A DNA stretch of 64,000 bases, taken from contig JBBIGR010000001.1 in NCBI GenBank assembly GCA_037447435.1, forward strand, positions 96,001 to 160,000, given 5' to 3'. Positions 34,955 through 64,000 of the stretch are shown piece by piece (the stretch's first letter is position 1; every line of letters starts with the position of its first letter). The notes below the pieces were generated by a model that was given only the letters and a program-made list of their open reading frames with translations, was not told the DNA's origin and made no database searches. This DNA comes from Fibrobacteria bacterium. GTDB taxonomy: Bacteria > Fibrobacterota > Chitinivibrionia > Chitinivibrionales > FEN-1185. The translations under genes were made by a program, and so were the position numbers.

Positions 34955-35653
34955 TTATGAAGACGGAAAAATTCCGTTATCTTTTACGTTAATCAATTTT
35001 CCGTCCGAAAGAGCAAACCTTTTTGTCGCCCGGGCAGCAACATTTTTATCATGCGTCACCAATACAACGGTGCCACCGTCCTTTACAAACTCATCAAAAT
35101 AACCGCAAATTTTTACAGCATTGTCCGGGTCAAGGTTTCCCGTGGGCTCATCGGCAAAAAGGACCTTCGGACCATTGAGAAGCGCGCGGGCAAACGCGAC
35201 CCGTTGTTTTTCTCCAGTGGAAAGCTTCGACGGATAATGTCCGCTCCGCTTCGACATGGCAAACCGGTCGAGTAAACGGTCTGTTTCCGTTTCTGCGTCC
35301 CTGTTTGGTTTTGAGGTTTTGTCCGGTATCGAAGCGGCAAGAATATTTTCACGCACCGTTAAATACGGTAATAATAAAAGTTCCTGAAAAACAAAACCGA
35401 TTTCCGCGCTACGGATACTCGTCAGGTCTTTATCGGAAAAGCCGTATAAATCTTTGCCGTTCAAAGCGACTGTTCCACTATCCGGGCGCATAAGACCGCT
35501 TGCCAAAAGCATAAGTGTCGATTTCCCGCAGCCAGATTCACCGCGAATGGAAATAAAATCATTGGCCTTGATTTCAAATGACAAATTCCGTAGGACTTCA
35601 ATCCGTTTTGTCGGGCCTATAAACGTCTTGGTCACATTTTCAAGCAAAAGCAT
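34955..35653 (-). CDS. ABC transporter ATP-binding protein (LolD/MacB-like)
   Basis: GESGCGKST, LSTGEKQRV, FADEPTGNLD, VTHD. Confidence 0.92.
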   Translation of the reverse strand: MLLLENVTKTFIGPTKRIEVLRNLSFEIKANDFISIRGESGCGKSTLMLLASGLMRPDSGTVALNGKDLYGFSDKDLTSIRSAEIGFVFQELLLLPYLTVRENILAASIPDKTSKPNRDAETETDRLLDRFAMSKRSGHYPSKLSTGEKQRVAFARALLNGPKVLFADEPTGNLDPDNAVKICGYFDEFVKDGGTVVLVTHDKNVAARATKRFALSDGKLINVKDNGIFPSS

Positions 35654-35657
35654 TATT

Positions 35658-36929
35658 CTATTCCCCTTTAACTATTTCAGCCGGGTCTTCGCCTAGTACC
35701 GGCATTGCCCCGAGCCATCCGCAAACCATGGTGCATACGGGAGCAAGGACAATTGCGAAAACAACTTCTGCAATATCGACAAGAGACCAAACACCTACTC
35801 TTGTACGCATTGCAAGGACAATAAGAGCGCAAAAACCGCAGACAGCGCCGGCAATCGACCCTATAACGCCGATGAGCAGCGAACGCACGTTGACAAGAGC
35901 GGCGACCCTGCCTGCCGAAAAACCTATGGCACGGAGAATGCCGAACTCCGTACGGCGCTGCCGGGCATTTACATACGAAAGAACGCCGATGAAAACAACG
36001 CATGTTCCGATAAGCAGGGGCAAAACCAGAAAGAAATATTTTTCCTTTTCATGACGTAACGATGCCCTCGAGGTTTTTTCCGACAACAGTGCGGCTTTGG
36101 CATAATCCGCCGCTTTAGAGCGCGTTTCGGCCCGGGTAAGCGCCTGGGACGCAAATTCCACTATTTGCGTATTTGGAAGTATGGCGCCGATTTCGGCCCT
36201 AACTTGGTCGGGTTTTGCCATTGCGCATTGACATTCAAGAGCAAGGATGCCGTTAAGCAGGCCTTTTTTTCCAAACATCTCCTGTGCCTGTTTCAGGTTT
36301 ATCCACAAAGTAATATCATCTTTCGTGCCTTTCATGGGGTAACATCCTGCAACCGTAAACTGCCTGCCCATGAATTTGACAAAGCTCCCTTTTTTGCAGC
36401 CGATGCTGTTGTGCAATTCATAGCCAAGATATATCGTTCCGGAAGCTACATTGTCCCGCATGGGCTTTTTGGTTTCCGCCGAAGCGATTTTGACCTCCCC
36501 CATTGTTCCGACCGCCAGTACCGTCCGCTTCTGCTCCGGCCATACCACTTTCTGCTGCAGCAGCGGAAGAAGATGCTGGATAGTTGCTATTTTGGAATGA
36601 GCGAGGGTGTCTATGTACCAGTCGGGCATTGTTTTTGTCGCAAAATCATTGGCATATAAATCGGCAAGATCCTGGTCTTTGGGCAAAACGAGAATATTGA
36701 ACCCCATAGACGTGCCTATTTTGCGGTATTCCTCCTGCAATTGCTCGGTCTGGTCGGCAACTTCTTTTTCTTTTTTGGAAATGATGCTTTCGGTCGAAGC
36801 GTCAAACAGCCTGAGAAGTCCCGCTGTTGCAATCAAGGCGGCAACCGCGATAGCAACGGCGGCTATTGCCACGATTGTGATGTGGGACCTGTAGAAAAAC
36901 TCTTTTCGTACGATACTGAATAATGTCAT
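35658..36929 (-). CDS. FtsX/MacB-like ABC exporter permease
   Basis: True start ATG 36929 (MTLFSIVRKE); TM, large periplasmic loop, RRTEFGILRAIGF, C-terminal TMs; LECQC in the loop. Confidence 0.85.
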   Translation of the reverse strand: MTLFSIVRKEFFYRSHITIVAIAAVAIAVAALIATAGLLRLFDASTESIISKKEKEVADQTEQLQEEYRKIGTSMGFNILVLPKDQDLADLYANDFATKTMPDWYIDTLAHSKIATIQHLLPLLQQKVVWPEQKRTVLAVGTMGEVKIASAETKKPMRDNVASGTIYLGYELHNSIGCKKGSFVKFMGRQFTVAGCYPMKGTKDDITLWINLKQAQEMFGKKGLLNGILALECQCAMAKPDQVRAEIGAILPNTQIVEFASQALTRAETRSKAADYAKAALLSEKTSRASLRHEKEKYFFLVLPLLIGTCVVFIGVLSYVNARQRRTEFGILRAIGFSAGRVAALVNVRSLLIGVIGSIAGAVCGFCALIVLAMRTRVGVWSLVDIAEVVFAIVLAPVCTMVCGWLGAMPVLGEDPAEIVKGE

Positions 36930-37006
36930 TGAAAATCTTTTTACCCTTCGAAAATGTTGCTTAAAAACAATGCGGTGCGCATCGTTACAACCCTGGTTCT
37001 CCCCGT

Positions 37007-38440
37007 TTACGACGACGGTATTCCTGCAAACGCGTACAATGTCCCGTCGATGCTGTGGACAACTTTCATGCTGTCGGAAACCAATACCCCGGTGCATGAC
37101 CCGGCAGTACGATAAATTTTTATGATATTTCCGGTTTGTATGTCCACCGAAACAAGAACGCCTTTTTCCGCAGCCTCTGTAAGATAAAGGATGTGGCCGG
37201 CGCAGGTCATGGGTGCGCATCCGTCAAATGTCCGACGCCACTGCAATGCCCCGTTTTGCTGGTCGAAAGACCGCAAATCGCGCGACCGGACAAATACCCG
37301 TCCTTCCGCGGCAAGCATGAGTCGCACATCAACGTCATCGAGGTGCCAAAGCTCAGTGCCGGAAGCGGCATCGAGGCATTGTAAAAACGAATTGCCTAAA
37401 ATTGACCGATGCGATATGAAAACTCTGTTATTGTCCTGGCTTAATTGAGGGGCAACTGAAAGTACCATCGGTTCTTTAAATTGATGCTTCCATACGACAT
37501 TGCCGTTTGTCGCTAAGCAATACACGCCCTCGCCGCTCGCAATTAGGACGGATTCTTGATATATGCATACCCGGCTCGCAACCGCGTTTGCACCCAGGTT
37601 TTTTTTCCATTGCCGCAAGCCGGTTTGTGCGCTTATGGCATACACAGAATTTCCCGCACTCCAATACACTGTTTTGCCAACGATGGCAGGTGCGGAAGGA
37701 TCGAATGCCATACCCGGTTTACTGCTGAATTCCCATGAAAATGTTCCGGTGGAAGAATTAAATGCACGTAAAACTGGCATATCCTGTTGCATCGACACGC
37801 CGTACACCTGGTGCGAATCGGCCGATAGATACCCTGTTGCCGAAAGGGTAGACCGCCATGCGATATTTCCCTTTTTCATATTAACGGCAACGATCCTTCC
37901 GGAAGGCCCGTATTTTTCTATAGTGTAAACATTGCCTCCGCACAAGACCGGTGTGCATGCCCGAGACTCTTTGAATGCGGCAATATTGGGGACTTTCCAA
38001 AGTGTCTGGACCGGTGTGGGGACAATGCCCGCGTATGCCTCGGCCTGCAGGGGAACGCGGTCATTGAAAACAATGAGTGTTATTGCAAAACAGGCTATCA
38101 CGGAACCGTATGCATAGGCACGTATGCGTTTTGCGGCTTTGTACCGCCTGAAATCTTTATCGAGCGAAGCGGCGCATTTATTGGCGAGTGAACCGGCAAA
38201 CCCCTCTGAAGGTTCTTCCCTGAAAATTTCCGACCTGATGTTTTGTACTATCCCGAGGTAATCGTCGTTATACAAACGGCATTCTTCACATACGAGCATA
38301 TGCGCGTGTAATCGCCGGTCTTCAATGTCGGTAAGCGGACCATTTGTGCTTTTGCAAATAAGATCTTTATACCGTGTACAATCCTCGATGTGCAAGGCTC
38401 CTTCGATGATGCAGGACAGATTGTTTTTATTTAATTCCAT
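37007..38440 (-). CDS. Anti-sigma factor: zf-HC2 domain + TM + PQQ-like beta-propeller
   Basis: HMLVCEEC (HxxxCxxC); one TM helix; repeated A.D..TG...W propeller blades; overlaps the ECF sigma stop. Confidence 0.8.
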   Translation of the reverse strand: MELNKNNLSCIIEGALHIEDCTRYKDLICKSTNGPLTDIEDRRLHAHMLVCEECRLYNDDYLGIVQNIRSEIFREEPSEGFAGSLANKCAASLDKDFRRYKAAKRIRAYAYGSVIACFAITLIVFNDRVPLQAEAYAGIVPTPVQTLWKVPNIAAFKESRACTPVLCGGNVYTIEKYGPSGRIVAVNMKKGNIAWRSTLSATGYLSADSHQVYGVSMQQDMPVLRAFNSSTGTFSWEFSSKPGMAFDPSAPAIVGKTVYWSAGNSVYAISAQTGLRQWKKNLGANAVASRVCIYQESVLIASGEGVYCLATNGNVVWKHQFKEPMVLSVAPQLSQDNNRVFISHRSILGNSFLQCLDAASGTELWHLDDVDVRLMLAAEGRVFVRSRDLRSFDQQNGALQWRRTFDGCAPMTCAGHILYLTEAAEKGVLVSVDIQTGNIIKIYRTAGSCTGVLVSDSMKVVHSIDGTLYAFAGIPSS

Positions 38441-39006
38441 GTTCCCGTCTGTTGCAGGCTCATATTGGCTTTTCGGGCCAAAATGCGCAGCCGTTCTATA
38501 CCGCGTTGCGACCGCTTTTTTGCAGCTTCAACCGAACAGCCTACGATTTTTGCGATTTCTTCGAATGAGAGGTCCTGCGCGATTTTCAACATCACCACCT
38601 CACGTTCATTCGACGACAATTTTTCAACAAGTCTGCGGTAATTCGCGGAAATATCCGAAGATTGATCTTCTATGGCAACGTCCCATTCATCGGTGAGACG
38701 GATATCCAACATTGATCCTATTTTTTTTCTTCGGATCATGTCGATACAGATGTTCCGGAGGATACGGTAAAACCATGGTGCAAAAGGTTGACCTGCATGA
38801 AAATGCTCGCTTTTGTTCATAATACGCAGGAAAGCTTCCTGCAAGGCGTCTTCCGCACCTTCTTTTTCCAACATGTAACTTCGCGCAATAGAGAGTGCCG
38901 GCTTTGCATACCGTTCAATCAGCTCGCTGAATAGCCGGAAATCCCGGTTGTCGCGAAACGATATCATCAGCATTTCATCGGTCATTATATCCATAGTAAA
39001 TTCCAT
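38431..39006 (-). CDS. ECF RNA polymerase sigma factor
   Basis: AEDALQEAFL, FAPWFYRILRN.CID (region 2); LSFEEIAKIVG...RG (region 4); start at ATG 39006 or 38994. Confidence 0.92.
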   Translation of the reverse strand: MEFTMDIMTDEMLMISFRDNRDFRLFSELIERYAKPALSIARSYMLEKEGAEDALQEAFLRIMNKSEHFHAGQPFAPWFYRILRNICIDMIRRKKIGSMLDIRLTDEWDVAIEDQSSDISANYRRLVEKLSSNEREVVMLKIAQDLSFEEIAKIVGCSVEAAKKRSQRGIERLRILARKANMSLQQTGTWN

Positions 39007-39022: not shown

Positions 39023-40054
39023 TTATTGGTTTCTCGGGCCGTTTGTTTTTGCGGAAACCGAGTCTTTTTTGGCAAGACATTGACCGGACGACAAACTGCC
39101 CAATTGCGGCAGGTCGTTGTCGTTGGCATCGACCGAGGTCTTCACGATCGGGCCCCAGTCGTACGTCATGAGCACGTCCTTGCCCGGGTTTTGCTCCTTT
39201 ATCGTGCAGGAGCATGAACCAGTCAGAAAGGCATTTGCCTGCATTATGTTTTTGGTGTTGATTCCTTTACCGACAAGTGCATACAAAAGGCGGCCGCGGC
39301 CGAAAATCGGGAATGCCATGGGCTCCTTTTCAAATGCGCCGAGACCGCGTTCGGAACTGATCAGAACTTTCACGAGGGTCTGTTCCTGCGGGTCGGTCCG
39401 TGAGACCTTCACCACAGAAAAAGTAACGCCGAGTCCTTCGGCAATTTTCCCCATCTGGGCCCGGTCTATCTTGGTTATTTCCGGAAGTTTGAGAGAATCT
39501 TTGCAGACCTTAAGACTGTTTTCCAGAGTTTTTTCAGCTGTTTTGTCTTTACTTTTGTCCCCGCTTTCAAGAAGAATCCACACCGCTGTCGTTCCTTTGG
39601 TGAGCCGGTCGTATATGGTTTTGCGGGCCGGTGAAGTGGAAAGGTATTTGACAGGCATGGAGTCGAGCGCGCCCATCCACAAAGGCACCGGTATCTTACT
39701 TTCATTTGGAAACATTACCGCAACCCAGGGAAACGGAAGCGAGGCGCCTGCGGCCATGAGCTGTTTGTTGGACTTTGCGACAGAATCGTCCGGTGAATGT
39801 ACACTCACCTTGTAAAACGAACCAACGGAGGTATTTTTTACTTTTGCTTTTTCCGCAACGGCAGTTTTTGACCCGGCTTCTGTCATTTCGGCAATTGTTT
39901 TTTTCTGCGCAGGGCTCAAATCACCTTTAGCGAATATCAATACTTCATAAGGATCAGTGGCCCACTGGGCGATCGCATAACGGTAAACCGGAATCGAACA
40001 AGCCCAAACAACGCCGACAAAGAAAAGGACCGGGAGAAAAACTTGAAAACGCAT
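39023..40054 (-). CDS. Exported hypothetical protein with CSIPVYRY and CSC motifs
   Basis: GAGG RBS; signal peptide ending VWAC; PIFGRGR; GSCSCTIKEQNPG. Confidence 0.75.
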   Translation of the reverse strand: MRFQVFLPVLFFVGVVWACSIPVYRYAIAQWATDPYEVLIFAKGDLSPAQKKTIAEMTEAGSKTAVAEKAKVKNTSVGSFYKVSVHSPDDSVAKSNKQLMAAGASLPFPWVAVMFPNESKIPVPLWMGALDSMPVKYLSTSPARKTIYDRLTKGTTAVWILLESGDKSKDKTAEKTLENSLKVCKDSLKLPEITKIDRAQMGKIAEGLGVTFSVVKVSRTDPQEQTLVKVLISSERGLGAFEKEPMAFPIFGRGRLLYALVGKGINTKNIMQANAFLTGSCSCTIKEQNPGKDVLMTYDWGPIVKTSVDANDNDLPQLGSLSSGQCLAKKDSVSAKTNGPRNQ

Positions 40055-43900: not shown

Positions 43901-43906
43901 ACTCCT

Positions 43907-43940
43907 TAGGTTGAATACAACACCCCTCTCACAGGATGAT
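43907..43940. repeat. Copy C of the shared CACCCCTCTCAC element, in the 5' leader of the propeller operon
   Basis: TAGGTTGAATACAACACCCCTCTCACAGGATGAT; the 21-mer ACACCCCTCTCACAGGATGAT is identical to 44238-44258. Confidence 0.85.
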
Positions 43941-44194
43941 TTTGATCTTGCTTTTCTCCTTCTCCTTTGCAGTCCTGCACCTCCATTTTGTTTATTTTTA
44001 TAGAAACTTTAATTATGTGTGCCTTTTATTTTTTCCAGCAGGCACTCTTCAATTGAATTTTGCTAACTAAATTATCCCGAGAATGTTTGTTTAGGATATT
44101 ATCTTTATTTGTTTTGTGTTAAAAACCTTTGAAATAATGAATGTTATGGTTATAATTATTGAATCAAAGCTATCGGGCAAAATTTAAATAAAAC

Positions 44195-44229
44195 ATGTCC
44201 CGAAACGAATTTTAATTTCGTTATATAGG
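44195..44229 (+). promoter_or_regulatory. Putative ECF promoter A: ATGTCCC-N17-CGTTATATAGG
   Basis: Both boxes and the 17-nt spacer are identical at 56298-56332; spacer sequences differ. Confidence 0.65.
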
Positions 44230-44298
44230 CAGGATACACACCCCTCTCACAGGATGATCGCCCGTTAAACGGCGGTTATGTGTACTCCTGCTTTTTTT
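44229..44298 (+). ncRNA. Candidate structured sRNA / attenuator leader A
   Basis: GCAGGATACACA (44229-40) pairs with TGTGTACTCCTGC (44279-91); inner hairpin TGATCGCC/GGCGGTTA; unpaired CCCCTCTCACAGGA; ends in T7. Confidence 0.5.
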
Positions 44299-44393: not shown

Positions 44394-46505
44394 ATGATAA
44401 TTTCCACTGGTGTTCTTGGATGTTTTCTTCTCTGCGCCGCTCCTGCCGATTCCCAGCAGGATACCTATAAATTCGATACACTGATTGTTACTGCCAAGCG
44501 GAAGATCGCGGCGGATGCTCAAAGCGAACAAATCGTGCCAAGTCTCGGCGCGACAAAACGCACCATGAACAGAGAACAGATCGCTGATCAGTCGCAGGGA
44601 GACAATGCCTCGTTCGATCAAACACTGTACCGCTTTCCCGGGGTAGTGCAGGATGAGCTTGACAAAAGGTTGCATGTCCGCGGTGAAGAGGCGAACCTGC
44701 AATACCGGATCAACGGTGTGCTGTTGCCCGACGGACTACTGGGTTTTGGCCAAGAGCTCGGCACTCGATTTATCGATCAATTGTCGCTCATTGTGGGCAC
44801 ACTTCCTGCCCAATTCGGCGGGCGTACGGCCGGAATCGTCGATATTCGCACAAAGAGCGGTGCCGACATGAACGGTGGCGATCTATCGCTGTACGGCGGG
44901 AGCTTTGGCACCGTGAATCCGTCGGTAGAATACGGCGGAGCAAGCGGTAACTGGACCTACTATGCAACCGGAAATTTTTTATACGACGGCATCGGTATGG
45001 CCAATCCGACAAACAGCGTCACGCCACTCCACGACAACACCTATCAGTACAAGGGATTGACTTCTTTATCCTGGTTCATCGACAATTCGAGCAGACTCAG
45101 CATCATCGTAAGCGGCGCCTACAGCCGTTTCCAGCTACCGAATATTCCCGGCCAAACGACCAATTACACCGACGATTCACTTGCCTCATTCAACTCTTCG
45201 TTGCTCGACGAGAACCAGACTGAACAGAGTTACTACGACATCGTTTCGTATCAGAAAAAAAGCGGCGACCTAAGTTATCAAATTTCGCAGACCGAACGCT
45301 ACAGCGATGTGCTGTATATGCCGGACAAAATCGGCGATATGATGTTCAATGGTGTTGCGGCCCGCGCCGAGCACAGCCTGAGCGCTTTCGGGCTGACAAT
45401 TGATGCAAGCGACGAACTGGACGACAGCCACACACTCCGCGCCGGCGCAAGTTTAACTATCGACAATGCCGATGTCGCGACATCGAATTCGGTCTTTCCT
45501 GCAACCTGGAACGACACGATATGGGCACAGACCGGCTCGACGCCCTACACCATAGACGACGACAACAAGAAAACGGCCTGGCTTTACAGTTGTTACCTCC
45601 AGGACGAATGGAAACTTGCGAAGGAACTGACGGTCAATTACGGCTTGCGGTTCGAGGGGCTCAACGCATATCTTGACGAATATCAGCTCAGTCCCCGGAT
45701 CAACATAGTGTACCAGCCGTTTAAGCCCACGACCCTTCACCTTGGCTATGGCATGTATTTCACGCCGCCGCCCATCGAATTCGTGCCGCCTTCAAGCATC
45801 AGAAAATTTGACAATACCACGTACGGTGCGGACCCGAACAACAACACGAGTTCGCAGGTGAAATCGGAACGCTACCATTATTTCGACGCAGGCGCTACGC
45901 AGGAAATCACCACAGGCCTGGAGATGGGCATTGACGGATATTATAAGCTCAAGAAATACACCCTTGACGAAGGCCAATTCGGTCCGGCTATGATTTTTTC
46001 GCCCAATAACGCGGACCAGGGCTATGTGCGTGGCGTTGAAGTAACGCTCAACTACAACGGTAAAACTGTTTCGGCCTATGGAAACGTCGCGTTCAGCCGG
46101 GCCATGGCCTATGGCCTGGTGTCGGGCGAATTTCAATTCGCGCCCGACGAGATCGACTACATGCGTTCGCATTGGTATCACCTCGATCACGATCAGGATA
46201 TCACCGCCTCGCTCGGCGCAGCATACAAGTTTGCGGGCGCCCGGGTCTATGGCGATCTTCTGTACGGCAGCGGTTTGTACGGCGGTCAATACAACACGCA
46301 GGAGGCGCCGCAGTATGTGACGGTCAATGCGGGTATCGAGTACATGCTAACGCTTTTGGGTAAAAACAAATTGAAGGCCCGATTCGACGTTGTCAACGTG
46401 TTTGACCTAGTGTATGAAATCCGGGACGGTGACGGTATCGGTGTTTTCGCACCTCAATATCTTCCACGGCGTGGGTTTTATGGAGGTTTGGTATGGGAAT
46501 TTTAA
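44394..46505 (+). CDS. TonB-dependent outer membrane receptor
   Basis: Signal peptide; TonB box (DTLIVTA); plug (PGV...LHVRG); YLQDEW, NYGLRF; C-terminal NVFD...WEF. Confidence 0.92.
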   Translation: MIISTGVLGCFLLCAAPADSQQDTYKFDTLIVTAKRKIAADAQSEQIVPSLGATKRTMNREQIADQSQGDNASFDQTLYRFPGVVQDELDKRLHVRGEEANLQYRINGVLLPDGLLGFGQELGTRFIDQLSLIVGTLPAQFGGRTAGIVDIRTKSGADMNGGDLSLYGGSFGTVNPSVEYGGASGNWTYYATGNFLYDGIGMANPTNSVTPLHDNTYQYKGLTSLSWFIDNSSRLSIIVSGAYSRFQLPNIPGQTTNYTDDSLASFNSSLLDENQTEQSYYDIVSYQKKSGDLSYQISQTERYSDVLYMPDKIGDMMFNGVAARAEHSLSAFGLTIDASDELDDSHTLRAGASLTIDNADVATSNSVFPATWNDTIWAQTGSTPYTIDDDNKKTAWLYSCYLQDEWKLAKELTVNYGLRFEGLNAYLDEYQLSPRINIVYQPFKPTTLHLGYGMYFTPPPIEFVPPSSIRKFDNTTYGADPNNNTSSQVKSERYHYFDAGATQEITTGLEMGIDGYYKLKKYTLDEGQFGPAMIFSPNNADQGYVRGVEVTLNYNGKTVSAYGNVAFSRAMAYGLVSGEFQFAPDEIDYMRSHWYHLDHDQDITASLGAAYKFAGARVYGDLLYGSGLYGGQYNTQEAPQYVTVNAGIEYMLTLLGKNKLKARFDVVNVFDLVYEIRDGDGIGVFAPQYLPRRGFYGGLVWEF

Positions 46506-46514
46506 TAGGCAATA

Positions 46515-46952
46515 ATGGAGGTTCGCATGGCTTGGCTTAAAGCTGTTGTCGACTACGGAATAATTGGGCTGCTTGTCCTCATGAGCATTACCGCGGTCGC
46601 TATCACGCTTGAACGATGGAGCGTCTTACGTCGGGTTCGCGTTTCCGAGTATACGGACAAACGCGAACTTGAGTTGATTATCACCCGCAAGTTGCATTTG
46701 ATCGCGACCATCGGCAGCAATGCGCCGTATATCGGGCTTCTGGGAACCGTGCTCGGCATCATGCTGACGTTTTATACCATGGGCGAACACGGGTTAATGG
46801 ACTCCACTAAAATCATGACCGGACTTGCCCTGGCACTCAAGGCGACCGCAATGGGACTGGTCGTGGCCATCCCGTCCATCGTATTCTATAACGTGCTCCT
46901 CCGTAAAGTCAAGGTCATTTTATTGCAATGGGACATCCGCCATGGAAGATAA
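46515..46952 (+). CDS. exbB: ExbB (short type) TonB-system energizer
   Basis: IATIGSNAPYIGLLGTVLGI, ALKATAMGL..AIP. Confidence 0.92.
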   Translation: MEVRMAWLKAVVDYGIIGLLVLMSITAVAITLERWSVLRRVRVSEYTDKRELELIITRKLHLIATIGSNAPYIGLLGTVLGIMLTFYTMGEHGLMDSTKIMTGLALALKATAMGLVVAIPSIVFYNVLLRKVKVILLQWDIRHGR

Positions 46953-48691: not shown

Positions 48692-48692
48692 A

Positions 48693-56297: not shown

Positions 56298-56332
56298 ATG
56301 TCCCCAATCCGTTTTCTTGCCCGTTATATAGG
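56298..56332 (+). promoter_or_regulatory. Putative ECF promoter B: ATGTCCC-N17-CGTTATATAGG
   Basis: Same boxes and spacing as 44195-44229; upstream of the mod operon. Confidence 0.65.
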
Positions 56333-56392
56333 TGAATATGCACCCCTCTCACCGGATCTTAGTTTTACGATGATCCAAGCCCTTATTTTTTT
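56331..56392 (+). ncRNA. Candidate structured sRNA / attenuator leader B
   Basis: GGTGA/TCACC stem exposing CACCCCTC; GGATC/GATCC stem; T-tract 56386-92. Confidence 0.4.
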
Positions 56393-56560
56393 ATTTTGCC
56401 GTTTTATCCCGTAATAATCGTATGTAAATATTTATCATAGGCAAAATTGGTATGACTGATCAAATCAAAGCAAAATCCTAATGAATTATTAACAATGTCC
56501 CGGTAATTTAATGACCATGTTTAATTGGAGGCTGCATTTCTTATTTATGGGAGCCCAATT

Positions 56561-57346
56561 GTGTGTAGATTTTTTCGTCGTGGCATCAAATTGTTCGTTT
56601 CGTTTTGTCTGGTGTTCTTTTATGTTGTTGGTATTTCTGCAGAGGAAAAGAAACCGCAAAGTTCCATTCTGGTCCATTGTGCAGCGGGAATGCGTAAGCC
56701 CATAGAACTGTGTGCGAAAAAATTCGGGGATTCGATGGATATCGCCGTACAGCTTTCCTATGACGGTTCGAACCGACTGCTCGGACAAATAGAACTCACT
56801 CATAAAGGTGATGTTTACATTTGCGGAGACGCCGAGTATGCGGACAGCGCAAAAGTCAAGGGGCTTGTAGGCCAAATGGGGACGATATGTTGGTTTTCAC
56901 CGGTAATACTTGTTAAAAAAGGAAATCCTAAAAAAATCCTCTCAATGGCCGACCTTACAAAGCCGGGTTTAAAAATCGGTCAGGGTGATGAAAAATCCGC
57001 AGCAGTCGGAAAAATCGTTCCGAAATTGCTTTCTTTAAATACTGTCGATACGGATCTGTGGAAAAAAAATGTCGTTCTCGTAACTCCAACGGTTACTGAA
57101 CTGGGAAACGCAATGAAACTGGGTACCGTTGATGCGGTTATTATTTGGAACAGCATTGCCCAAGGGTATAAAGACGTTGGAGAAATAATTCCGATCACTA
57201 AAAAAGTTGTTTGCTCGGTCGAGGCCGTCGCGCTTTCGACAAGTACAAATAAGAACGTTGCGCTTCAATTCCTTGATTTCCTTACAAGACCTTCAGGCAG
57301 GAAAATCCTCTCTGATGCCGGATATTCTGTTGACAATAGCGATTAA
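56561..57346 (+). CDS. modA: Molybdate/tungstate ABC substrate-binding protein (ModA-like 1)
   Basis: GTG 56561 with GGGAG RBS; CAAGMRKP, YDGS..L..QI, GDVY, KGNPKKI, GTVDA. Confidence 0.75.
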   Translation: MCRFFRRGIKLFVSFCLVFFYVVGISAEEKKPQSSILVHCAAGMRKPIELCAKKFGDSMDIAVQLSYDGSNRLLGQIELTHKGDVYICGDAEYADSAKVKGLVGQMGTICWFSPVILVKKGNPKKILSMADLTKPGLKIGQGDEKSAAVGKIVPKLLSLNTVDTDLWKKNVVLVTPTVTELGNAMKLGTVDAVIIWNSIAQGYKDVGEIIPITKKVVCSVEAVALSTSTNKNVALQFLDFLTRPSGRKILSDAGYSVDNSD

Positions 57347-57349: not shown

Positions 57350-58189
57350 ATGAAAATCAAAGCATTCCCAATTCTTTTTTCCATACCGCTTGCAATTCTG
57401 ACCGGCGCCATAACCCTTATCATCATAGCCGATATTTCATACGTGCATAAAAGCGATATTATATCGACATTGCTTTCCAAGGATATCGTCTCGTCCATGA
57501 TTCTCACATTGGAAACTTCAATACTGACGACAGTCATTTCGGTCATCATTGCGGTGCCAAGCTCCTATGCCCTGAGCCGTTTCAAGTTTCCCGGCGCTTT
57601 TGTTCTGGATACACTGATAGACCTATTGATTGTTGTGCCGGTTCTGGTCGTCGGCGTCAGCATCTTGGTTTTTTTCCGCATGGGCTTTTTATTGGAATCC
57701 AGCCCGTTTCCGCCTGCCGTACTCGTAGGTAAAGTGATTCAATGGCTTGGGGATGTCTTTATTTATCAACGTGCAGGCATAGTGCTCGCCCAATTTTTCT
57801 GTTCGGTCCCTTTTGCAGTGCGCGTTATAAAAAGTACCTTCGATGATATGAGTCCACGAACCGAACATGTTGCGCAGACTCTGGGATGCAGTCGTCGTCA
57901 GGCTTTTTTCAAAGTAAGCCTCCCCCTTGCCAGTCAGGGGATATTTGCCGGTGCCGTACTTGCATGGGCCCGGGCATTTGGGCTGTTCGGTCCCATTTCC
58001 ATTGTTGCCGGTGCGGTGCGGCAAAAAACAGAAGTCCTATCCACCTCTATTTTCCTGGAAATTTCTATTGGTCAGCTAGAAACAGGGATTGCACTTTCGC
58101 TATTGATGGTGGTTATCGCAAGCGCAATTCTGATGCTGTTAAGAATTGCTTCGGGAAAAACGCTTTTCGGAGGAAAGGTGCAGGTATGA
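57350..58189 (+). CDS. Molybdate/tungstate ABC permease (ModB/WtpB-like)
   Basis: YALSRFKFPG, EHVAQTLG EAA-like loop, WARAFGLFG. Confidence 0.82.
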   Translation: MKIKAFPILFSIPLAILTGAITLIIIADISYVHKSDIISTLLSKDIVSSMILTLETSILTTVISVIIAVPSSYALSRFKFPGAFVLDTLIDLLIVVPVLVVGVSILVFFRMGFLLESSPFPPAVLVGKVIQWLGDVFIYQRAGIVLAQFFCSVPFAVRVIKSTFDDMSPRTEHVAQTLGCSRRQAFFKVSLPLASQGIFAGAVLAWARAFGLFGPISIVAGAVRQKTEVLSTSIFLEISIGQLETGIALSLLMVVIASAILMLLRIASGKTLFGGKVQV

Positions 58190-59229
58190 TTGAAATTTCG
58201 AATCTGCGCCACAAAGCCGGCGAATTTCAGCTTGGAGTAAATCTCATTATTGCTGCAGATGAATATTTTGTCCTTCTGGGAAAAACCGGATGCGGTAAAA
58301 CATTACTGTTGGAATGTTTGAGCGGTTTGCGAGAATGCGAAAACGGTTCATCAATCAAAATTAACGGACGCACAATTACATTTGCGGAACCCCGTGAGCG
58401 GTCGATCGGGTATGTTCCTCAGGAAGGCGCACTTTTTACCCATCTCAACGTATTTGAGAACATCGCATTTTCACTCAGGGTCACTCGTATTGAAAAATAC
58501 GATATCGTAAGGCGTGTCGGACAAATTGCCGAGCTTTTAGGTATTTCATATCTTCTTACGCGGACTATAAAAGGGTTATCGGGCGGCGAGCGACAGCGGG
58601 TGGCTCTTGCCCGGGCTCTCATCCGAAAACCGTCGGTGCTGCTTCTCGACGAACCGGTGAGCGCCCTTGACGAAGGCACACGCGACGCCGTATGCGCAGA
58701 ACTTCTTACCATTCAACGGGAAATGAAAATTCCGGTTATCCATGTGTGCCACAGTTTCGATGAGGCATCCATCCTTGCCGATCGTGTGGGCATAATGCGT
58801 AACGGCTCAATTGCACAGCAAGGTACCTTGGAAGAGGTATACCGATTTCCGCTCGATGCTTATGTGGCAAGGATGATGCGACTCGAAAACATTTTTACCG
58901 CAAGTCTTACGCCGGAAGGAAAATTGTCCGCCAACGGCTTTGTCCTGTCTGCCGAACCAATCAACGGTTTCAGGAAATTCATCATACATCCGCACCTCGT
59001 TCGAATTGCGAAAAGCAATAATCATAACCCGGATATGCCGAACAGGATGAGCGGTATTGTAAAGGAACTGCATCGACGGGGAGCAATAACGGGCATTGTT
59101 CTGGACGGCCCTCTTTTATTGACCCTGTATGCAATGCCCGATGAGATCGAAGAAACAGGGATAGTGCGGGGAAAAGAAATCTCAGTGACTTTTCCCGCAC
59201 AAGCAATACATATGCTTACCGATGAATAG
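58186..59229 (+). CDS. ABC ATP-binding protein (ModC/WtpC-like) with TOBE-like tail
   Basis: ATG 58186 overlapping the permease stop; GKTGCGKT, LSGGERQRV, LLDEP. Confidence 0.88.
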   Translation: MIEISNLRHKAGEFQLGVNLIIAADEYFVLLGKTGCGKTLLLECLSGLRECENGSSIKINGRTITFAEPRERSIGYVPQEGALFTHLNVFENIAFSLRVTRIEKYDIVRRVGQIAELLGISYLLTRTIKGLSGGERQRVALARALIRKPSVLLLDEPVSALDEGTRDAVCAELLTIQREMKIPVIHVCHSFDEASILADRVGIMRNGSIAQQGTLEEVYRFPLDAYVARMMRLENIFTASLTPEGKLSANGFVLSAEPINGFRKFIIHPHLVRIAKSNNHNPDMPNRMSGIVKELHRRGAITGIVLDGPLLLTLYAMPDEIEETGIVRGKEISVTFPAQAIHMLTDE

Positions 59230-59232: not shown

Positions 59233-60090
59233 ATGACAAGGAGCAAATTGATGAAACTATCGTCGCGGAAAACGATTTCGCTTTTATTAGTCGCAACAGC
59301 AATTATAGCCACGTTTATTTCTTGCTCCCCAGACAAAGGCGATAAGCCTTTGTTATGCTTTGTTGGCGGAACAATGCGCCCGGCCATGGAGGAACTTGTC
59401 AGACAATATCAGACAAAGCATCCTCTCAAGGTTGACATCGACTATGCCGAAAGCGGCGAGCTTTACGTCCGTATAGACCAGACGCATAAAGGCGACATTT
59501 TTGTTTGTCATGATCCTTTCGGCGGTGCGGCAAAAAGGAAAGGTCTGGTCGTTACGTCTTTGCCGGTTGCCACTTTGGACCCGGTCATTGTCGTTGCAAA
59601 AGGAAACCCTAAAAATATACACGGCATTATGGACATGGCAAAACCCGGTATCAAAGTCATATTTACCCATGAAATGTACAACGAAATGAACCTTGTCCCC
59701 CGCATGGCGGAACGCGCCGGCGTGCGCAAACAACTTGATTCGAATTGCGCCTCGTTTTCCTGGGGCGGCGGCGAGTCGGCCAATGAGCTTTCGCTTGGTG
59801 CGGCGGACGTTTCTATTGTTTGGAATGCCGTGGCGGCGCTCCGCACCGATATCGTCGATATGGTTCCCATTGAAAAAGGCCTTCATTTGCAAAGCAATAC
59901 CGATGCAATCACCTGTGCGACCTACGGTACGGTCGATTTATCTACAATCAAGGTAACCGCTAATGTTTTGAAATGGTCGAAAAATGCGAAAGCGGCTACC
60001 GCATTTGCCGAGTTTTGCGCTTCAGACGAGGCACAGAAGGTTTGGACAAAGTTCGGATTTTCTCCGCGTCGAGAAAAGTTTCTTGAATAA
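59233..60090 (+). CDS. Molybdate/tungstate substrate-binding lipoprotein (ModA-like 2)
   Basis: Lipobox-like FISC; GGTMRP, YAESGEL, KGNPKNI, ADVSIVWN. Confidence 0.75.
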   Translation: MTRSKLMKLSSRKTISLLLVATAIIATFISCSPDKGDKPLLCFVGGTMRPAMEELVRQYQTKHPLKVDIDYAESGELYVRIDQTHKGDIFVCHDPFGGAAKRKGLVVTSLPVATLDPVIVVAKGNPKNIHGIMDMAKPGIKVIFTHEMYNEMNLVPRMAERAGVRKQLDSNCASFSWGGGESANELSLGAADVSIVWNAVAALRTDIVDMVPIEKGLHLQSNTDAITCATYGTVDLSTIKVTANVLKWSKNAKAATAFAEFCASDEAQKVWTKFGFSPRREKFLE

Positions 60091-60114: not shown

Positions 60115-60858
60115 ATGAAACTGTTTCTGTTTATTGCACTCTTATGTATTGCCCCTGTTAGGTCTCAGATAATCATTGCCGCAGCATCTTCAATGCAGAA
60201 TGCTTTAAACCAGGCTTTGCCTGTATTTGAAAAAGCAACCGGGAATACGGCAACGGTCGTGTACGGATCTTCGGGAAAACTTTTGGCCCAAATAAAAAGC
60301 AATGCGCCTTATGACGTTTTCTTGTCTGCCGACATGGCGTTACCCGAAAGTCTGGCCGTGGCAAAATTGACCGACGGCAAACCCGTCGTCTATGCCCGCG
60401 GGACGCTCGTACTTTGGACGCTTAAAACCATCGACTTGTCGAATGGCAAAAAAGCGCTTCTCGATTCGAATTGCTATAAAATAGCCGTAGCAGACCCGCG
60501 GACCGCGCCCTACGGAAAAGCTGCAATCGCGTTTTTACAAAGCGAAAAAATATTCGCTTTGATCGAGAAAAAACTCGTTTATGGAGACAATGTTTCCCAG
60601 GCAGCCCAATACATATTGACCGGTTCGGCCGATTTGGGCATAATGGCCAAATCCCTTGTCGTTACTCCGGAAACGCTCAATAAAGGACATTGGGTTGAAA
60701 TCCCCGCAAGCTCCTACCCCGCAATCGATCATGGCATGGTGCGTTTATTGCAAGGAATGAAAAAAAATCCCGAAGCAAGCAAATCATTTTACGATTTTAT
60801 TCTCTCGGATAAAGGGCAGGAAATCCTCGTGAATTGCGGTTTCACATCGATCAAATGA
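60115..60858 (+). CDS. modA: Molybdate ABC substrate-binding protein (canonical)
   Basis: AAASSM, YGSSGKL..QI...APYDVFLSAD, P..APYG.AA, GDNVSQA. Confidence 0.92.
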   Translation: MKLFLFIALLCIAPVRSQIIIAAASSMQNALNQALPVFEKATGNTATVVYGSSGKLLAQIKSNAPYDVFLSADMALPESLAVAKLTDGKPVVYARGTLVLWTLKTIDLSNGKKALLDSNCYKIAVADPRTAPYGKAAIAFLQSEKIFALIEKKLVYGDNVSQAAQYILTGSADLGIMAKSLVVTPETLNKGHWVEIPASSYPAIDHGMVRLLQGMKKNPEASKSFYDFILSDKGQEILVNCGFTSIK

Positions 60859-61544
60859 TTGCAGGGAACACCATGATGCAGCTTCTAAATCCTCTTTTTC
60901 TCACTTTTAAACTTGCCTTATGTACGGCGACGGCACTTCTTCTCATAGGCACACCCATTGCATATGCAATCGCCCATAGCCGCGGGTTTGTCAAATCGGT
61001 ATCTTGTTCTATTGTCAGTATGCCTCTTGTGCTGCCGCCCACGGTTCTCGGTTTTTATCTGCTGCTGCTTTTTGGACCGGCCACGCAATCAGGCAAGTTT
61101 CTCATCGACGTCGTTCACCTCAGGCTTCTCTTTACTTTTTGGGGGCTTGTAGTCGGGTCAATAATCTGCAGTTTTCCATTTATGGTTAATCCGCTCATCG
61201 GCGGGTTCGAGTCCATACCTCATTCGCTTACCGAAGCGGCTTCCACTCTTGGTAAAACACGGTTGCAAACGCTTGTCCATGTTTTGCTTCCAAATATGAA
61301 AGGCGCTATTCTAACCGGTACGATTCTCGCTTTTTCGCACGCTATCGGCGAATTCGGCGTTGTGCTCATGATCGGCGGCAAAATACCCCAAGTCACCCGT
61401 GTGGCTTCAATAGCAATATACGACGAAGTCGAATCCTTTCATTATCAAACCGCCCATTTTTATGCGGGAATTTTATTTGTTGTTTCATTTTTAGTTTTAT
61501 TTATTGTAAATTCGGCTAACAGACGTATTATTAAGCCGATTTAG
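60855..61544 (+). CDS. modB: Molybdate ABC permease
   Basis: PLVLPPTVLGFYLL, EAA.TLG, GEFGVVLMIGG.IP. Confidence 0.93.
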   Translation: MIAGNTMMQLLNPLFLTFKLALCTATALLLIGTPIAYAIAHSRGFVKSVSCSIVSMPLVLPPTVLGFYLLLLFGPATQSGKFLIDVVHLRLLFTFWGLVVGSIICSFPFMVNPLIGGFESIPHSLTEAASTLGKTRLQTLVHVLLPNMKGAILTGTILAFSHAIGEFGVVLMIGGKIPQVTRVASIAIYDEVESFHYQTAHFYAGILFVVSFLVLFIVNSANRRIIKPI

Positions 61545-61551
61545 GAGTACC

Positions 61552-62316
61552 ATGTTGCAGGCATCGATAAAAAAACGGATAGGGAATAAAAACAGCGGCA
61601 TCGACATAAACCTTAACTTTAATATGAGTCAAGGAGAGAGGCTCGGTCTTATGGGTTCTTCGGGGTCCGGTAAAACCTCCTTATTGCGCATACTTGCCGG
61701 ACTGGAAAAGGTCGATTCCGGGAAAATTGTAATGAATGGGAATCCGTGGGTCGACACCGATGCCAAGACATTCGTCCCTCCGTCGCACCGTAATATCGGG
61801 TTTGTCTTTCAGGATTATGCTTTGTTTCCGAATATGACATTGCGGCAAAATCTCGCATTTGCTTCAAGAAACGGAAGTGCCGACCCGAAGGTGGAGGAAC
61901 TGCTTGATGTCATGGCTCTCGCGCTTCATGCGGATAAAAAACCCTGCGAACTTTCCGGCGGACAAAAGCAGCGTGCGGCACTGGCACGTGCGCTTGTCCG
62001 CAGCCCCCAGCTTTTGCTTATGGACGAGCCGCTGTCGGCACTCGACAGACATACGAGGACCATGCTGTGGTCCGAACTCAATCGCCTTTACAATCGCTAT
62101 CCCGTCTCGATTATTTTGGTTTCGCACGATCCTGAAGAAATCGAAGCGCTCACCGACCGGGCAATCACTATCGACCGCGGGAAAATAATTTCCGTTCCAA
62201 AGAGGATAATTCCGGTTCTTTCAAATCGACTTCCGATTGAAACTTCTCGGTATCACAACAACGGGCTTAATTTAACGGCCGTCACTTCCGTCGACTTTAC
62301 ACACATGCTTAATTAA
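61552..62316 (+). CDS. modC: Molybdate ABC ATP-binding protein (no TOBE tail evident)
   Basis: GSSGSGKT, VFQDYALFPNM, LSGGQKQR, LMDEP; follows modAB. Confidence 0.85.
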   Translation: MLQASIKKRIGNKNSGIDINLNFNMSQGERLGLMGSSGSGKTSLLRILAGLEKVDSGKIVMNGNPWVDTDAKTFVPPSHRNIGFVFQDYALFPNMTLRQNLAFASRNGSADPKVEELLDVMALALHADKKPCELSGGQKQRAALARALVRSPQLLLMDEPLSALDRHTRTMLWSELNRLYNRYPVSIILVSHDPEEIEALTDRAITIDRGKIISVPKRIIPVLSNRLPIETSRYHNNGLNLTAVTSVDFTHMLN

Positions 62317-62335: not shown

Positions 62336-62713
62336 ATGCGTTTACAAGCAAACGTGCATTGGATTCTGATCGGCGGTATCGGGCTTATCGGCGGTTTACT
62401 CAATGGTATGCTCGGCGTTGGAGCTGCTATTTTTCTCGTTCCTTGCTTGACAGTGGTTTTGGGGTTGCCGCAACTTACCGCGCAAGGAACCGTTTTATGG
62501 ATTATGGTTCCGATGTCTCTTACGAGTGCAATACGTTATTCGATGAAACCGGACATCGGGTTGGATTTTCCCCTTATAATCGTCATGTCGGTTTTGGCTA
62601 TTGTCGGCGCCAATTTCGGCAGTTCGATGGCTTTTACGTTACCGGTTGACATTTTAAAAAAATCATTCGGCGTGTTCATCGTTGCCGTCGGCGTATTCAT
62701 GTTTTTTAAATAG
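62336..62713 (+). CDS. TauE/SafE (TSUP) family membrane protein, half-size
   Basis: GLIGGLLNGMLGVGAAIFLVP...AQGT; about 4 TM; LKKSFG. Confidence 0.8.
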   Translation: MRLQANVHWILIGGIGLIGGLLNGMLGVGAAIFLVPCLTVVLGLPQLTAQGTVLWIMVPMSLTSAIRYSMKPDIGLDFPLIIVMSVLAIVGANFGSSMAFTLPVDILKKSFGVFIVAVGVFMFFK

Positions 62714-62728
62714 ATAGAAAGGTTTATC

Positions 62729-63001
62729 ATGAAAATCCATTTGGAATATTTTTCCCAAGTCCGTACGATAACGGAAACCGATGAAGAGACATTACATGTC
62801 TCCGACAATAGTACGGTCGGCGAGGTATTGGAGTTATTGGCCGATCGGTTCGGTTCCGCATTTAGCGATCTTATTTTCCCGGAAGGTAAACTGGCCCGCT
62901 CCATTCTTTTGGCCGCCAACGACACGGCAATCACCGATACGTATGTCAAGCTCGCTCATGGAGACAGGATTTCGATTCTCACCCCAATGTCGGGAGGTTG
63001 A
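62729..63001 (+). CDS. moaD: MoaD/ThiS-family ubiquitin-like sulfur carrier
   Basis: 90 aa beta-grasp pattern, GD.I.I..P.SGG C-terminus. Confidence 0.85.
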   Translation: MKIHLEYFSQVRTITETDEETLHVSDNSTVGEVLELLADRFGSAFSDLIFPEGKLARSILLAANDTAITDTYVKLAHGDRISILTPMSGG

Positions 63002-63002
63002 T

Positions 63003-63815
63003 ATGAACATGCAAACCGGAATGGTTTTCCCATCCAATACAGGCCGAGGGACTAAAGAATTATCGGACACCGAACTTGCCAGGTACGAATGGCAGTTGCC
63101 GGTGCCCGGTTTTGGGGAAGCCGGCCAAAAACGATTGCGCAATGCTACCGTACTCATATCTCGATGCGGCGGACTGGGCGGTATGGTCGCCTACGAACTT
63201 GCCGCAGCAGGGATTGGAAAGCTCGTGCTCTGTCATGGCGGAAACCTGCAAATGTCTGATCTTAACCGTCAATTACTCATGACTACCGATTGGGTCGGGA
63301 AACCGCGCATGGAGTCCATTATCTGGCGATTAAAGGAACTCAATCCCGAAATTAATTATGTTGGCATCGGTGAAAACATCTCCCCTCAAAATGCGGAATC
63401 GCTGATAGGCGGAGTAGATGTCGTTGTTGATTGCGCGCCGCTTTTTGAGGAGCGATATGCAATGAACGACGCCTGTGTCAAACTCGGCGTGCCGCTTGTC
63501 GAATGCGCAATGTACTCGACCGAGGCGCAATTGACCGTTTTTGTTCCCGGCCAAACGCCATGCCTTCGTTGCTTGTACCCGGAAACGCCTTTGGCATGGA
63601 AACGCCGGTTTCCCGTTTTCGGCGCAGTTTCCGGCACTATAGGATGCATGGCTGCGTTCGAGGTCATCAAAATAGTATCTGGTATCGGTGAAGTAACAAT
63701 GAACTCAATGCTTATCATGGATCTTTTGTCAATGAAATTCAGGAAAATAGCCATTTCCCCAAACGGAGATTGCCCGGTTTGCAAAACTGTACAAACTGAG
63801 GCAATCGGGGTATAA
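63003..63815 (+). CDS. HesA/MoeB/ThiF-family adenylyltransferase (HesA-like)
   Basis: ATG 63003 with GGAGG RBS; RYEWQ..GFGEAGQKRL, GGLGG, DLNRQLLMTTDWVGKPR, CLRC and CPVC. Confidence 0.85.
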   Translation: MNMQTGMVFPSNTGRGTKELSDTELARYEWQLPVPGFGEAGQKRLRNATVLISRCGGLGGMVAYELAAAGIGKLVLCHGGNLQMSDLNRQLLMTTDWVGKPRMESIIWRLKELNPEINYVGIGENISPQNAESLIGGVDVVVDCAPLFEERYAMNDACVKLGVPLVECAMYSTEAQLTVFVPGQTPCLRCLYPETPLAWKRRFPVFGAVSGTIGCMAAFEVIKIVSGIGEVTMNSMLIMDLLSMKFRKIAISPNGDCPVCKTVQTEAIGV

Positions 63816-63830
63816 AAGGTAGGTTCAACA

Positions 63831-64000
63831 GTGACAACTAAATCATCGGTCCTTTCTCAAGAAGAATTGCAACGATTTGCACGCCAGATTTCCATGGAAG
63901 CCATCGGTGAGAAAGGACAACGGAAAATTCTGGACAGTAGCGTTTTGGTAATCGGTGCCGGAGGCCTTGGATCGCCGATTTGCCTTTACCTTGCGGCTTC
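63831..64000 (+). CDS. moeB: Second MoeB/ThiF-family protein, 5' part (runs off window edge)
   Basis: Manual translation from GTG 63831: ...LSQEELQRFARQI...IGEKGQRKI...VLVIGAGGLGSPICLYLAA. Confidence 0.8.
   Translation, partial: MTTKSSVLSQEELQRFARQISMEAIGEKGQRKILDSSVLVIGAGGLGSPICLYLAA

Follow-up and report, generated by a model that had tools for sequence, protein, structure and literature searches.

To our knowledge, molybdenum (Mo) and tungsten (W) are known in biology almost only as molybdopterin cofactors and as the iron-molybdenum cofactor (FeMo-co). Molybdate or tungstate is imported by ModABC, and E1 enzymes of the MoeB/ThiF type adenylate Gly-Gly carriers for sulfur transfer. Genes of both kinds are present in a stretch of 64,000 nucleotides from a Fibrobacteria bacterium (GenBank assembly GCA_037447435.1, contig JBBIGR010000001.1, positions 96,001–160,000 of the forward strand), here called the window. 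They form a mod/hesA operon. The window also contains a TonB unit and an operon for a giant exported double-propeller protein, an exported cysteine protein (the CSIPVYRY protein), a sigma/anti-sigma pair and an ATP-binding cassette (ABC) exporter. The propeller and mod/hesA genes very probably constitute one functional system. This module is real, conserved and apparently undescribed; no paper on it was found in the open full text of PMC and bioRxiv, with subscription journals outside this scope.

Several described systems share parts with this locus. Molybdenum cofactor (Moco) biosynthesis (MoaA-E, MoeA/B, ModABC) has ModABC, a MoaD with a Gly-Gly end and MoeB-like genes in common with it, whereas the present genome has no MoaC, MoaE, MoeA or MogA-type match and has a second, atypical ModABC. 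The putative client proteins do not have the folds of dimethyl sulfoxide reductase, xanthine oxidase, sulfite oxidase or AOR by the searches run. In the NosDFY(L)-NosZ system, an exported β-propeller receives its metal-sulfur cluster from an ABC transporter acting with a periplasmic partner. Only the logic is shared: here the ABC transporter is of the FtsX/MacB type, the partner has another fold, the ligands would be Cys and not His, and the uptake genes are of the Mo type and not for Cu. LolCDE, MacB and FtsEX belong to the same superfamily as the exporter, but the window proteins score below the LolD, FtsE, MacB and LolC/E cut-offs. The Orange protein of Desulfovibrio, a small cytoplasmic protein with a thiomolybdate-based, pterin-free Mo-Cu-S cluster, is a precedent for a cluster without pterin; no component shared with it was found here.

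The HesA protein of nitrogen-fixation (nif) clusters has been studied in the context of Paenibacillus, cyanobacteria and Frankia (PMC6361004). In that study, loss of hesA nearly abolishes nitrogenase activity and is partly suppressed by molybdate or cystine; moeB or nifQ do not complement the loss, and nitrate reductase is spared. Genetically, HesA there routes Mo and sulfur into FeMo-co and not into Moco. The system described here lies outside Moco, nif, pyrroloquinoline quinone (PQQ), BamB and Lol membership. Most likely it works as a maturation line in the style of NosDFY, with HesA chemistry of the nif type as its supply.

An earlier, sequence-only reading of the window had proposed that the locus imports Mo/W, may build a thio-metal species and export it to the propeller protein. 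Its core, that the propeller and mod/hesA operons are a single system, holds up. No Moco pathway explains these genes in this genome, and HesA is of the nif type. The TonB unit, which it had included, is not part of what is conserved.

Co-occurrence of the propeller and mod/hesA genes

Gene neighbourhoods were counted within 10 kb in the best 80 of 574 genome loci with a CSIPVYRY gene, mostly from Planctomycetota and Verrucomicrobiota. Many of these contigs end early. The propeller gene is present in 46 loci, the FtsX-type permease in 42 and the ATPase in 38. Atypical ModA was found in 19, NifC-like ModB in 14, the HesA-type enzyme in 11 (45–65% identity) and MoaD in 6; 21 loci have at least one of these Mo/sulfur genes. 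Whole operons join both halves in L010, L063, L073, L126, L127, L130 and L167, L020 also has a full operon, and an ECF-anti-sigma-modABC arrangement is found in L171. Operons that contain both propeller and mod/hesA genes occur in Planctomycetota, Verrucomicrobiota and Fibrobacterota.

An even sample of 150 Planctomycetota genomes (completeness at least 90%, seed genome excluded) was examined for the same markers. The four-cysteine propeller is present in 24 genomes with 1–12 copies each, NifC-like ModB in 24 (E < 1e-85, at a score gap), the CSIPVYRY gene in 19, the HesA-type enzyme in 17 (E < 1e-100) and tandem ModA in 16. NifC-like ModB is the most tightly co-occurring marker, with 20 of 24 propeller carriers against 4 of 126 other genomes (12 of 16 against 3 of 125 after removal of 9 profile-building genomes). 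For the HesA-type enzyme the figures are 13 of 24 with the propeller and 4 of 126 without it; among CSIPVYRY carriers they are 13 of 19, against 4 of 131 in the remaining genomes. Tandem ModA is found in 15 of 17 HesA carriers and 1 of 133 others. Fisher p values for these comparisons are at most 1e-8, with a limited number of candidates scored per genome. All four genomes with ModB and no propeller have HesA; three of these have the CSIPVYRY gene, and in the fourth the cassette lies within a nif cluster. The sequence-only reading had named propeller operons occurring apart from mod/hesA genes as the finding that would speak against it, and the ModB and HesA counts went in its favour. Shared operons and shared genomes across phyla thus bear out that both operons belong to one system.

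A HesA profile was run on 50 of the 80 genomes and matched 39 of them, all with E < 1e-110. Eleven of these 39 had been used to build the profile; after dropping the profile-source genomes, 28 of 39 match. Because HesA-negative carriers exist, HesA/MoaD is frequent but not obligatory. The core consists of the propeller, its partner and the exporter, usually with the atypical ModABC. No clear recurrent neighbour replaces HesA. An exported methyltransferase-like gene (885 amino acids) recurs in six loci, four of them from HesA-negative genomes (L048 1428–4082, L061 17146–19812, L017, L062, L072, L077). In the phylum of the window itself, the system marker is patchy, a distribution that points to transfer or loss: 10 of 201 genomes have it, and none of the 5 in the same genus.

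The exported propeller, its partner and the exporter

The large exported protein consists of a propeller, a methyltransferase-like Rossmann domain (a weak match below the cut-off), a second propeller and a malectin-like tail. Residues 28–1075 were modelled with a predicted local distance difference test (pLDDT) score of 84.2 and a predicted template modelling score of 0.89 (43 sequences). Few positions are invariant overall in the alignment of 43 divergent rows. They include four cysteines and one arginine near the end of the second propeller (C975, R988, C1013, C1033 and C1035), and the RH motif at its start (residues 625–626) is nearly invariant. Judged by the strand and blade pattern, the invariant residues should all lie on one face of the second propeller. 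They would fall in the D-A and B-C loops of neighbouring blades, which corresponds to the cofactor-binding face of quinoproteins.

The closest solved fold is that of tetrathionate hydrolase (Z 24.8, r.m.s. deviation 3.2, 288 aligned residues, 14% identity); Foldseek, VIA-align and profile search all rank it first. BamB and WD40 proteins follow with Z 22–23. Tetrathionate hydrolase, BamB and PQQ quinoproteins have the same PQQ-type propeller fold. The present protein differs from these in that it is only 12–14% identical and combines two propellers with the Rossmann-like and malectin-like domains. Its set of four cysteines and the RH motif is not found in the tetrathionate hydrolase, BamB and PQQ dehydrogenase matches.

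The CSIPVYRY protein has 1090 homologues and belongs to no Pfam or NCBIfam family. It has a cysteine at the predicted first position of the mature protein and a CxC motif; C19 and C283 are invariant and C281 is nearly so (37 sequences). The model (pLDDT 80.4) gives weak Foldseek matches to tandem thioredoxin domains like those of protein disulfide isomerase (E 1.3e-3 or worse), and a tandem thioredoxin-like fold is predicted. Thioredoxin and protein disulfide isomerase have a CxxC motif, whereas the CSIPVYRY protein has CxC and the N-terminal cysteine instead.

In the permease, C233, C235 and H119 are nearly invariant (30 sequences). In 6 of 6 homologues, the periplasmic propeller of the anti-sigma factor has two invariant cysteines, at places like those of C975 and C1013 in the large protein; this adds a detail to the sensor role that the sequence-only reading proposed for this propeller. 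The anti-sigma gene recurs beside the system in L056, L148, L171, L181 and L182, and the gene for the extracytoplasmic function (ECF) sigma factor in L056, L171, L181 and L182. This chain of cysteine motifs, from exporter to partner, client and sensor, is what the hand-over of a metal-sulfur species would need; a disulfide relay would fit too.

Some lineages have two tandem permeases of the FtsX type (L056 9612–12229, L062, L182, L184, L189). In L056 the first of these is without the LECxC motif, which suggests a heterodimer.

Mo-type uptake, sulfur genes and competing explanations

Canonical ModA and ModB of the window score above the curated cut-offs, and the first atypical ModA stays below (Table 1). 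In other phyla, the two atypical ModA proteins are usually one tandem protein of 500–580 amino acids. Among solved structures, a profile of this tandem ModA finds molybdate-binding proteins first (E 6e-22) and a sulfate-binding protein at 3e-4. The ligand of the atypical pair is possibly a larger or sulfur-substituted anion. The half-length TauE/SafE gene recurs in 1 of the 80 loci and in L165.

The HesA-like gene belongs to the nif HesA type by tree, identity and cluster context. In a tree of 23 rows, the window enzyme groups with propeller-linked enzymes, a HesA from a planctomycete nif cluster and a Nostoc HesA. A split with support of 100/100 separates 19 HesA-type from 4 MoeB-type rows (small outgroup, midpoint root). 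The best plasmid matches are cyanobacterial HesA proteins (45–47%), ahead of MoeB (at most 38%); one of these HesA genes has modAB and TOBE genes as neighbours, and another is part of a nif cluster. Furthermore, the window enzyme is 44.6% identical to a HesA encoded between nifW and a hesB-like gene in a nif cluster. In a planctomycete nif cluster (L124 14850–19837, L125 3–794, G198), the same atypical modABC is present together with hesA, a MoaD-like carrier and moeZ. This arrangement suggests that a Gly-Gly sulfur carrier is the working partner of nif HesA. Window HesA and nif HesA are of the same E1 clade, and nif HesA is found with mod and TOBE genes. The window enzyme, in contrast, lies outside any nif cluster in the window and travels with exported propellers and a MoaD-like carrier of its own. 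With the phenotype reported for loss of hesA, the cassette is connected to the delivery of Mo and sulfur into a cluster without pterin, which gives the system its strongest functional anchor.

The sequence-only reading had also found no moaA/moaC/moeA or nif gene in the window. Genome-wide, this stands for moaC, moeA, moaE, MoCF_biosynth and nifD/K/E/N, but a nifH gene is present on a separate contig. MoaC, MoeA and MoaE gave 0 matches in the 99.57%-complete genome, in a search in which 11 of 14 controls were detected and MoaA was not included; MoCF_biosynth (PF00994) and nitrogenase component 1 have no match in the genome either. A MoaD with C-terminal Gly-Gly and an E1 enzyme of the MoeB type are present. 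The operon stops with MoeB at window-equivalent position 64601, and no moa-, moe- or AOR-like gene follows in the sequence read past 64000. The view that no canonical Moco pathway explains the mod operon in this genome is therefore upheld. The genes nifD/K occur in 3 of 64 carriers and MoaC in 58 of 64, compared with 127 of 151 in the sample (p 0.28). As nifD/K is this rare, MoaC is at the baseline and the Moco families are absent here, known consumers do not explain the cassette. The single PF00384 protein sits in a hydrogenase-like operon (contig C25). It is a formate-dehydrogenase-like subunit encoded in a membrane hydrogenase operon (L083 9706–19793), and probably a cofactor-less electron-transfer subunit.

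The nifH gene lies on contig C86 (6.8 kb; L081, 1–6835) with two P-II genes, a nifA-like regulator gene, modABC and a double-TOBE gene. The second P-II gene is cut off by the end of the contig, and run X1 shows a loose end there. The composition of the contig is host-like (55th percentile). The assembly has no nifDKENB match elsewhere, leaving only nifH of a full nif cluster, and nifD/K is found in 0 of 5 close relatives. C86 may be a remnant, a contaminant or part of an unassembled cluster.

From these genes the following pathway can be proposed. An oxyanion would be imported by two routes, the canonical ModABC, helped here by the TonB unit, and the dedicated set made up of the atypical ModA pair and NifC-like ModB; MoeB/HesA with MoaD would convert it to a sulfur-ligated metal species. 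The FtsX-type exporter, with its periplasmic LECxC motif, and the three-cysteine thioredoxin-like partner would keep the propeller cysteines reduced and hand over the cofactor. The propellers (1–12 per genome) would be client enzymes, probably for redox or sulfur-transfer reactions on extracellular substrates. The ECF/anti-sigma pair would read the state of the pathway through its own two-cysteine propeller.

Parts of this proposal differ in strength. The involvement of Mo or W is probable. That a pterin-free Mo/W-sulfur centre is loaded onto the four-cysteine site of the secreted propellers is the best reading, at about even odds. Only tentatively can a third class of Mo/W cofactor be suggested, a pterin-free, non-nitrogenase thio-metal centre dependent on HesA/MoaD, an ABC-thioredoxin relay and four-cysteine propellers, the last forming a large and expanded enzyme family in Planctomycetota, Verrucomicrobiota, Fibrobacterota and further phyla. 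Equally tentative is the corollary that nif HesA represents the same Mo-S chemistry borrowed for nitrogenase. If true, biology would have one more cofactor class. It would also have a large new family of metalloenzymes, which annotation now wrongly labels as BamB or PQQ proteins; about one in six of the sampled Planctomycetota have these proteins, and a single genome may contain up to 12. The product of HesA would become testable with a cognate MoaD-like carrier, a dedicated transporter, no nitrogenase background and cultured aerobic genera. Even with the wrong metal, the propeller, partner, exporter and ModABC form a real, undescribed envelope system.

A number of observations weigh against the metal-centre proposal. 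In tandem ModA, some canonical oxyanion residues of the binding site are altered (E. coli numbering). In the first domain, Gly replaces Ser12 in 11 of 13 sequences and Trp replaces Tyr170 in 10 of 13; in the second domain, Cys replaces Ser39 in 13 of 13. The first ModA of the window, taken alone, matches AcfC slightly better than ModA, leaving it split between AcfC/PEB3 and ModA. HesA is absent in 11 of 50 carriers and in 11 of 24 propeller genomes, and 7 of these 11 carriers are also without the atypical ModA pair. The pair is kept in G004, G026, G039 and G044; three have only canonical ModA, one has a TupA-like protein, and G011, G042 and G049 have neither ModA nor TupA. As G011 and G049 have MoeA, Mo import by an undetected route is implied for them, but G042 has no HesA, ModA, TupA or MoeA. 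The genomes are related, so the counts overstate independence. ABC transporters of the FtsX/MacB family often act without passage of a solute across the membrane, and the export step is weak for this reason. The four cysteines of the exported protein may simply form two disulfides, and a metal or cofactor on the propeller is a proposal drawn from genes and predicted structures. An unassembled nitrogenase could use the Mo cassette, given the nifH and nifA-like genes on C86. Finally, the TonB unit and the shared non-coding element are lineage-specific, one element copy is reversed, and a plasmid homologue of the TonB receptor in Paraburkholderia lies among zinc-uptake genes.

The altered ModA residues and the AcfC/PEB3 similarity would also suit a sulfur module, in which the atypical pair imports a sulfur oxyanion or organic anion, HesA/MoaD provide sulfur, and the propellers are enzymes resembling tetrathionate hydrolase, their sites being disulfides or persulfides. 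The three concordant searches that rank tetrathionate hydrolase first, the TauE and sulfur-carrier genes, and carriers without any Mo importer are in line with it. The structural match, however, covers a generic propeller at 13–14% identity and is nearly tied with BamB and WD40. Tandem ModA ranks molybdate-binding proteins well ahead of the sulfate-binding protein, and the same cassette occurs in a nif cluster. A pure sulfur module is unlikely on this balance.

A further possibility is another metal site (Fe-S, Zn or Cu) or disulfide formation, with the Mo cassette merely travelling along and serving nitrogenase or Moco enzymes. The orphan nifH contig with its host-like composition, the thioredoxin-like partner, the receptor homologue beside zinc-uptake genes, and G042, which keeps the core without Mo genes, would fit. 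Yet 61 of 64 carriers and all five close relatives have no nifD/K. A dedicated second type of ModABC tracks the propeller far above chance or MoaC, and ModA/B/C lie inside propeller or sigma operons in several lineages. This explanation is rather improbable.

Export of molybdopterin or a modified Moco to periplasmic propellers is very unlikely. The high frequency of MoaC among carriers and the MoaD and MoeB-like genes in the operon point in this direction, but MoaC is only at baseline and this genome lacks MoaC, MoeA, MoaE and MoCF_biosynth matches. Furthermore, its single PF00384 protein belongs to a hydrogenase-like operon, and nif HesA is not needed for Moco according to the hesA study. Automatic annotation would make the propellers dehydrogenases that use PQQ, or scaffolds like BamB, which is highly improbable: PF13360 matches and Atlas neighbours (unnamed or BamB-labelled clusters from the same phyla) agree with it, but all BamB and PQQ-enzyme NCBIfam scores are far under the cut-offs (TIGR03300 28.5 against 285; TIGR03075 without a match for the large protein), the Rossmann-like domain and four-cysteine set are extra, and the link to Mo and HesA is left unexplained. 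A search for pqqC gave 0 matches in 33 carriers and none in the control genomes either.

Layout of the locus, TonB unit and shared non-coding element

All open reading frames that the sequence-only reading listed for the three units were recovered (Table 1). The system genes are single-copy in the genome, except the receptor, the canonical modABC (second set on C86) and the MoeB-like genes.

Table 1. Positions of the system genes and non-coding features in the window.
Feature	Position	Strand	Basis
ABC ATPase, LolD/MacB/FtsE type	34955..35653	-	PF00005; best NCBIfam LolD 188.6 bits, below cut-off
FtsX/MacB-type permease, periplasmic LECxC motif	35658..36929	-	PF02687 and PF12704
Anti-sigma factor: zf-HC2 zinc motif, one membrane segment, periplasmic propeller	37007..38440	-	family match
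ECF sigma factor	38431..39006	-	family match
Exported CSIPVYRY protein	39023..40054	-	no Pfam/NCBIfam family
Exported double-propeller protein, 1253 amino acids	40133..43894	-	domain matches, alignment, model
Propeller 5' leader with element copy 1 and GGAGGTGC motif	43915..43984	-	motifs recur in L100, L056
ECF-like promoter candidate, then element copy 2 in structured RNA	44196..44297	+	fold z -3.36
TonB-dependent receptor	44394..46505	+	family match; L100 homologue
exbB, exbD (group 2), tonB	46527..47969	+	TIGR02805 above, TIGR02804 below, TIGR01352 above cut-off
Promoter candidate and element copy 3	56299..56357	+	pattern search
Atypical ModA-like binding protein 1	56525..57346	+	PF13531; TIGR01256 47.1 bits, cut-off 62.5
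NifC-like ModB permease	57350..58189	+	best match TIGR01581, 182.6 bits, cut-off 210.3
WtpC/ModC-like ATPase	58186..59229	+	best match NF040840, below cut-off
Atypical ModA-like binding protein 2	59233..60090	+	family match, alignment
Canonical modA, modB, modC	60115..62316	+	TIGR01256 178.3 > 62.5; TIGR02141 209.8 > 182.6; TIGR02142 below cut-off
Half-length TauE/SafE membrane protein	62336..62713	+	PF01925
MoaD/ThiS-type sulfur carrier, Gly-Gly end	62729..63001	+	TIGR01687 above cut-off
HesA-type E1 enzyme	63003..63815	+	tree with nif-cluster HesA
MoeB-like E1 enzyme, 256 amino acids	63831..64000, past window	+	ends at window-equivalent 64601

The TonB unit was claimed to belong to the system, and this does not hold beyond the lineage: none of the 80 best loci contains a receptor or TonB homologue. 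In the locus of a relative (L100, propeller 79% identical), the receptor is 86% identical and tonB directly adjoins canonical modA. This junction ties the TonB unit to Mo uptake locally. A receptor paralogue (73% identical) without the element or exb/tonB lies behind a metallophosphoesterase-like gene on contig C48 (L082 8414–10648).

The three units had been said to share a non-coding element. The element is real and has three copies. All of them lie on the plus strand, so that the copy at 43920 runs opposite to the propeller transcript. With up to 2 mismatches, its 17-nt core has 3 matches in the 5.05 Mb genome, all inside the window. Copy 1 is located just upstream of the ribosome-binding site of the propeller gene. 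The element and the GGAGGTGC leader motif both recur before the propeller gene in L100 and in the distant L056. Of 39 other propeller genes, one has the core upstream. The element was rejected as a general feature: with 2 mismatches allowed, 5 related genomes gave 11 scattered matches, against 5 for the reversed control, and none of these could be placed at the locus.

Copies 2 and 3 are preceded by an identical promoter-like pair, TGTCCC-N17-CGTTA. Since this pattern has 9 matches in the genome and about 4.5 are expected, its weight comes only from being repeated ahead of copies 2 and 3 and again in L100. Copy 2 is part of a U-tailed structured RNA of about 70 nt, whereas copy 3 folds no better than shuffled sequences (z -0.47). 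L100 keeps the promoter, stem and U-tail of copy 2. There, an identical pair of substitutions is found in copies 1 and 2, which preserves about 27 nt of complementarity between the copy-2 RNA and the propeller leader beside the ribosome-binding site. The co-folding gain of copy-2 RNA with the leader is about -28 kcal/mol for cognate and -21 to -23 kcal/mol for crossed pairs. The best reading, drawn from two genomes, is a terminated leader RNA that would act in trans on the propeller mRNA. The alternative is a DNA operator with copies kept alike by concerted change.

Rfam covariance models gave no match at gathering score in the window and only chance-level matches in 43800–44450. A Moco/Tuco riboswitch or other Rfam RNA was rejected as the identity of the element on the same grounds. 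The CGTTATATA stretch presumably resembles a ModE half-site; control by ModE was discarded, as no ModE gene was found in the genome (TIGR00637). A leader peptide was likewise discarded because the frame is not kept in L100. The promoter spacer before the TonB receptor contains an inverted repeat, AACGAA-N7-TTCGTT (44204–44222; L100 4187–4205), with perfect 7-bp arms in L100. It is a possible repressor site.

Between tonB and the mod operon lie 8 kb (47975–56236) with two dTMP-kinase-like genes, a pyruvate-kinase-like gene, an RCC1/immunoglobulin (Ig) gene and a gene for a 499-residue protein. This stretch looks unrelated to the system because tonB directly adjoins modA in the close relative. 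The two dTMP-kinase-like genes are arranged in tandem behind the pyruvate-kinase-like gene (648 amino acids, PRK14725 type; 47975–51312); the overlapping genes form a single operon, an insertion that separates tonB from the mod operon. The remaining part (51776–56236) encodes an exported protein of 926 amino acids with RCC1 repeats and two Ig domains, and the 499-residue protein, which has a weak secretion-tail match. Elsewhere in the window, a desulfoferrodoxin (superoxide reductase) gene (28555–28938) points to an anaerobic host.

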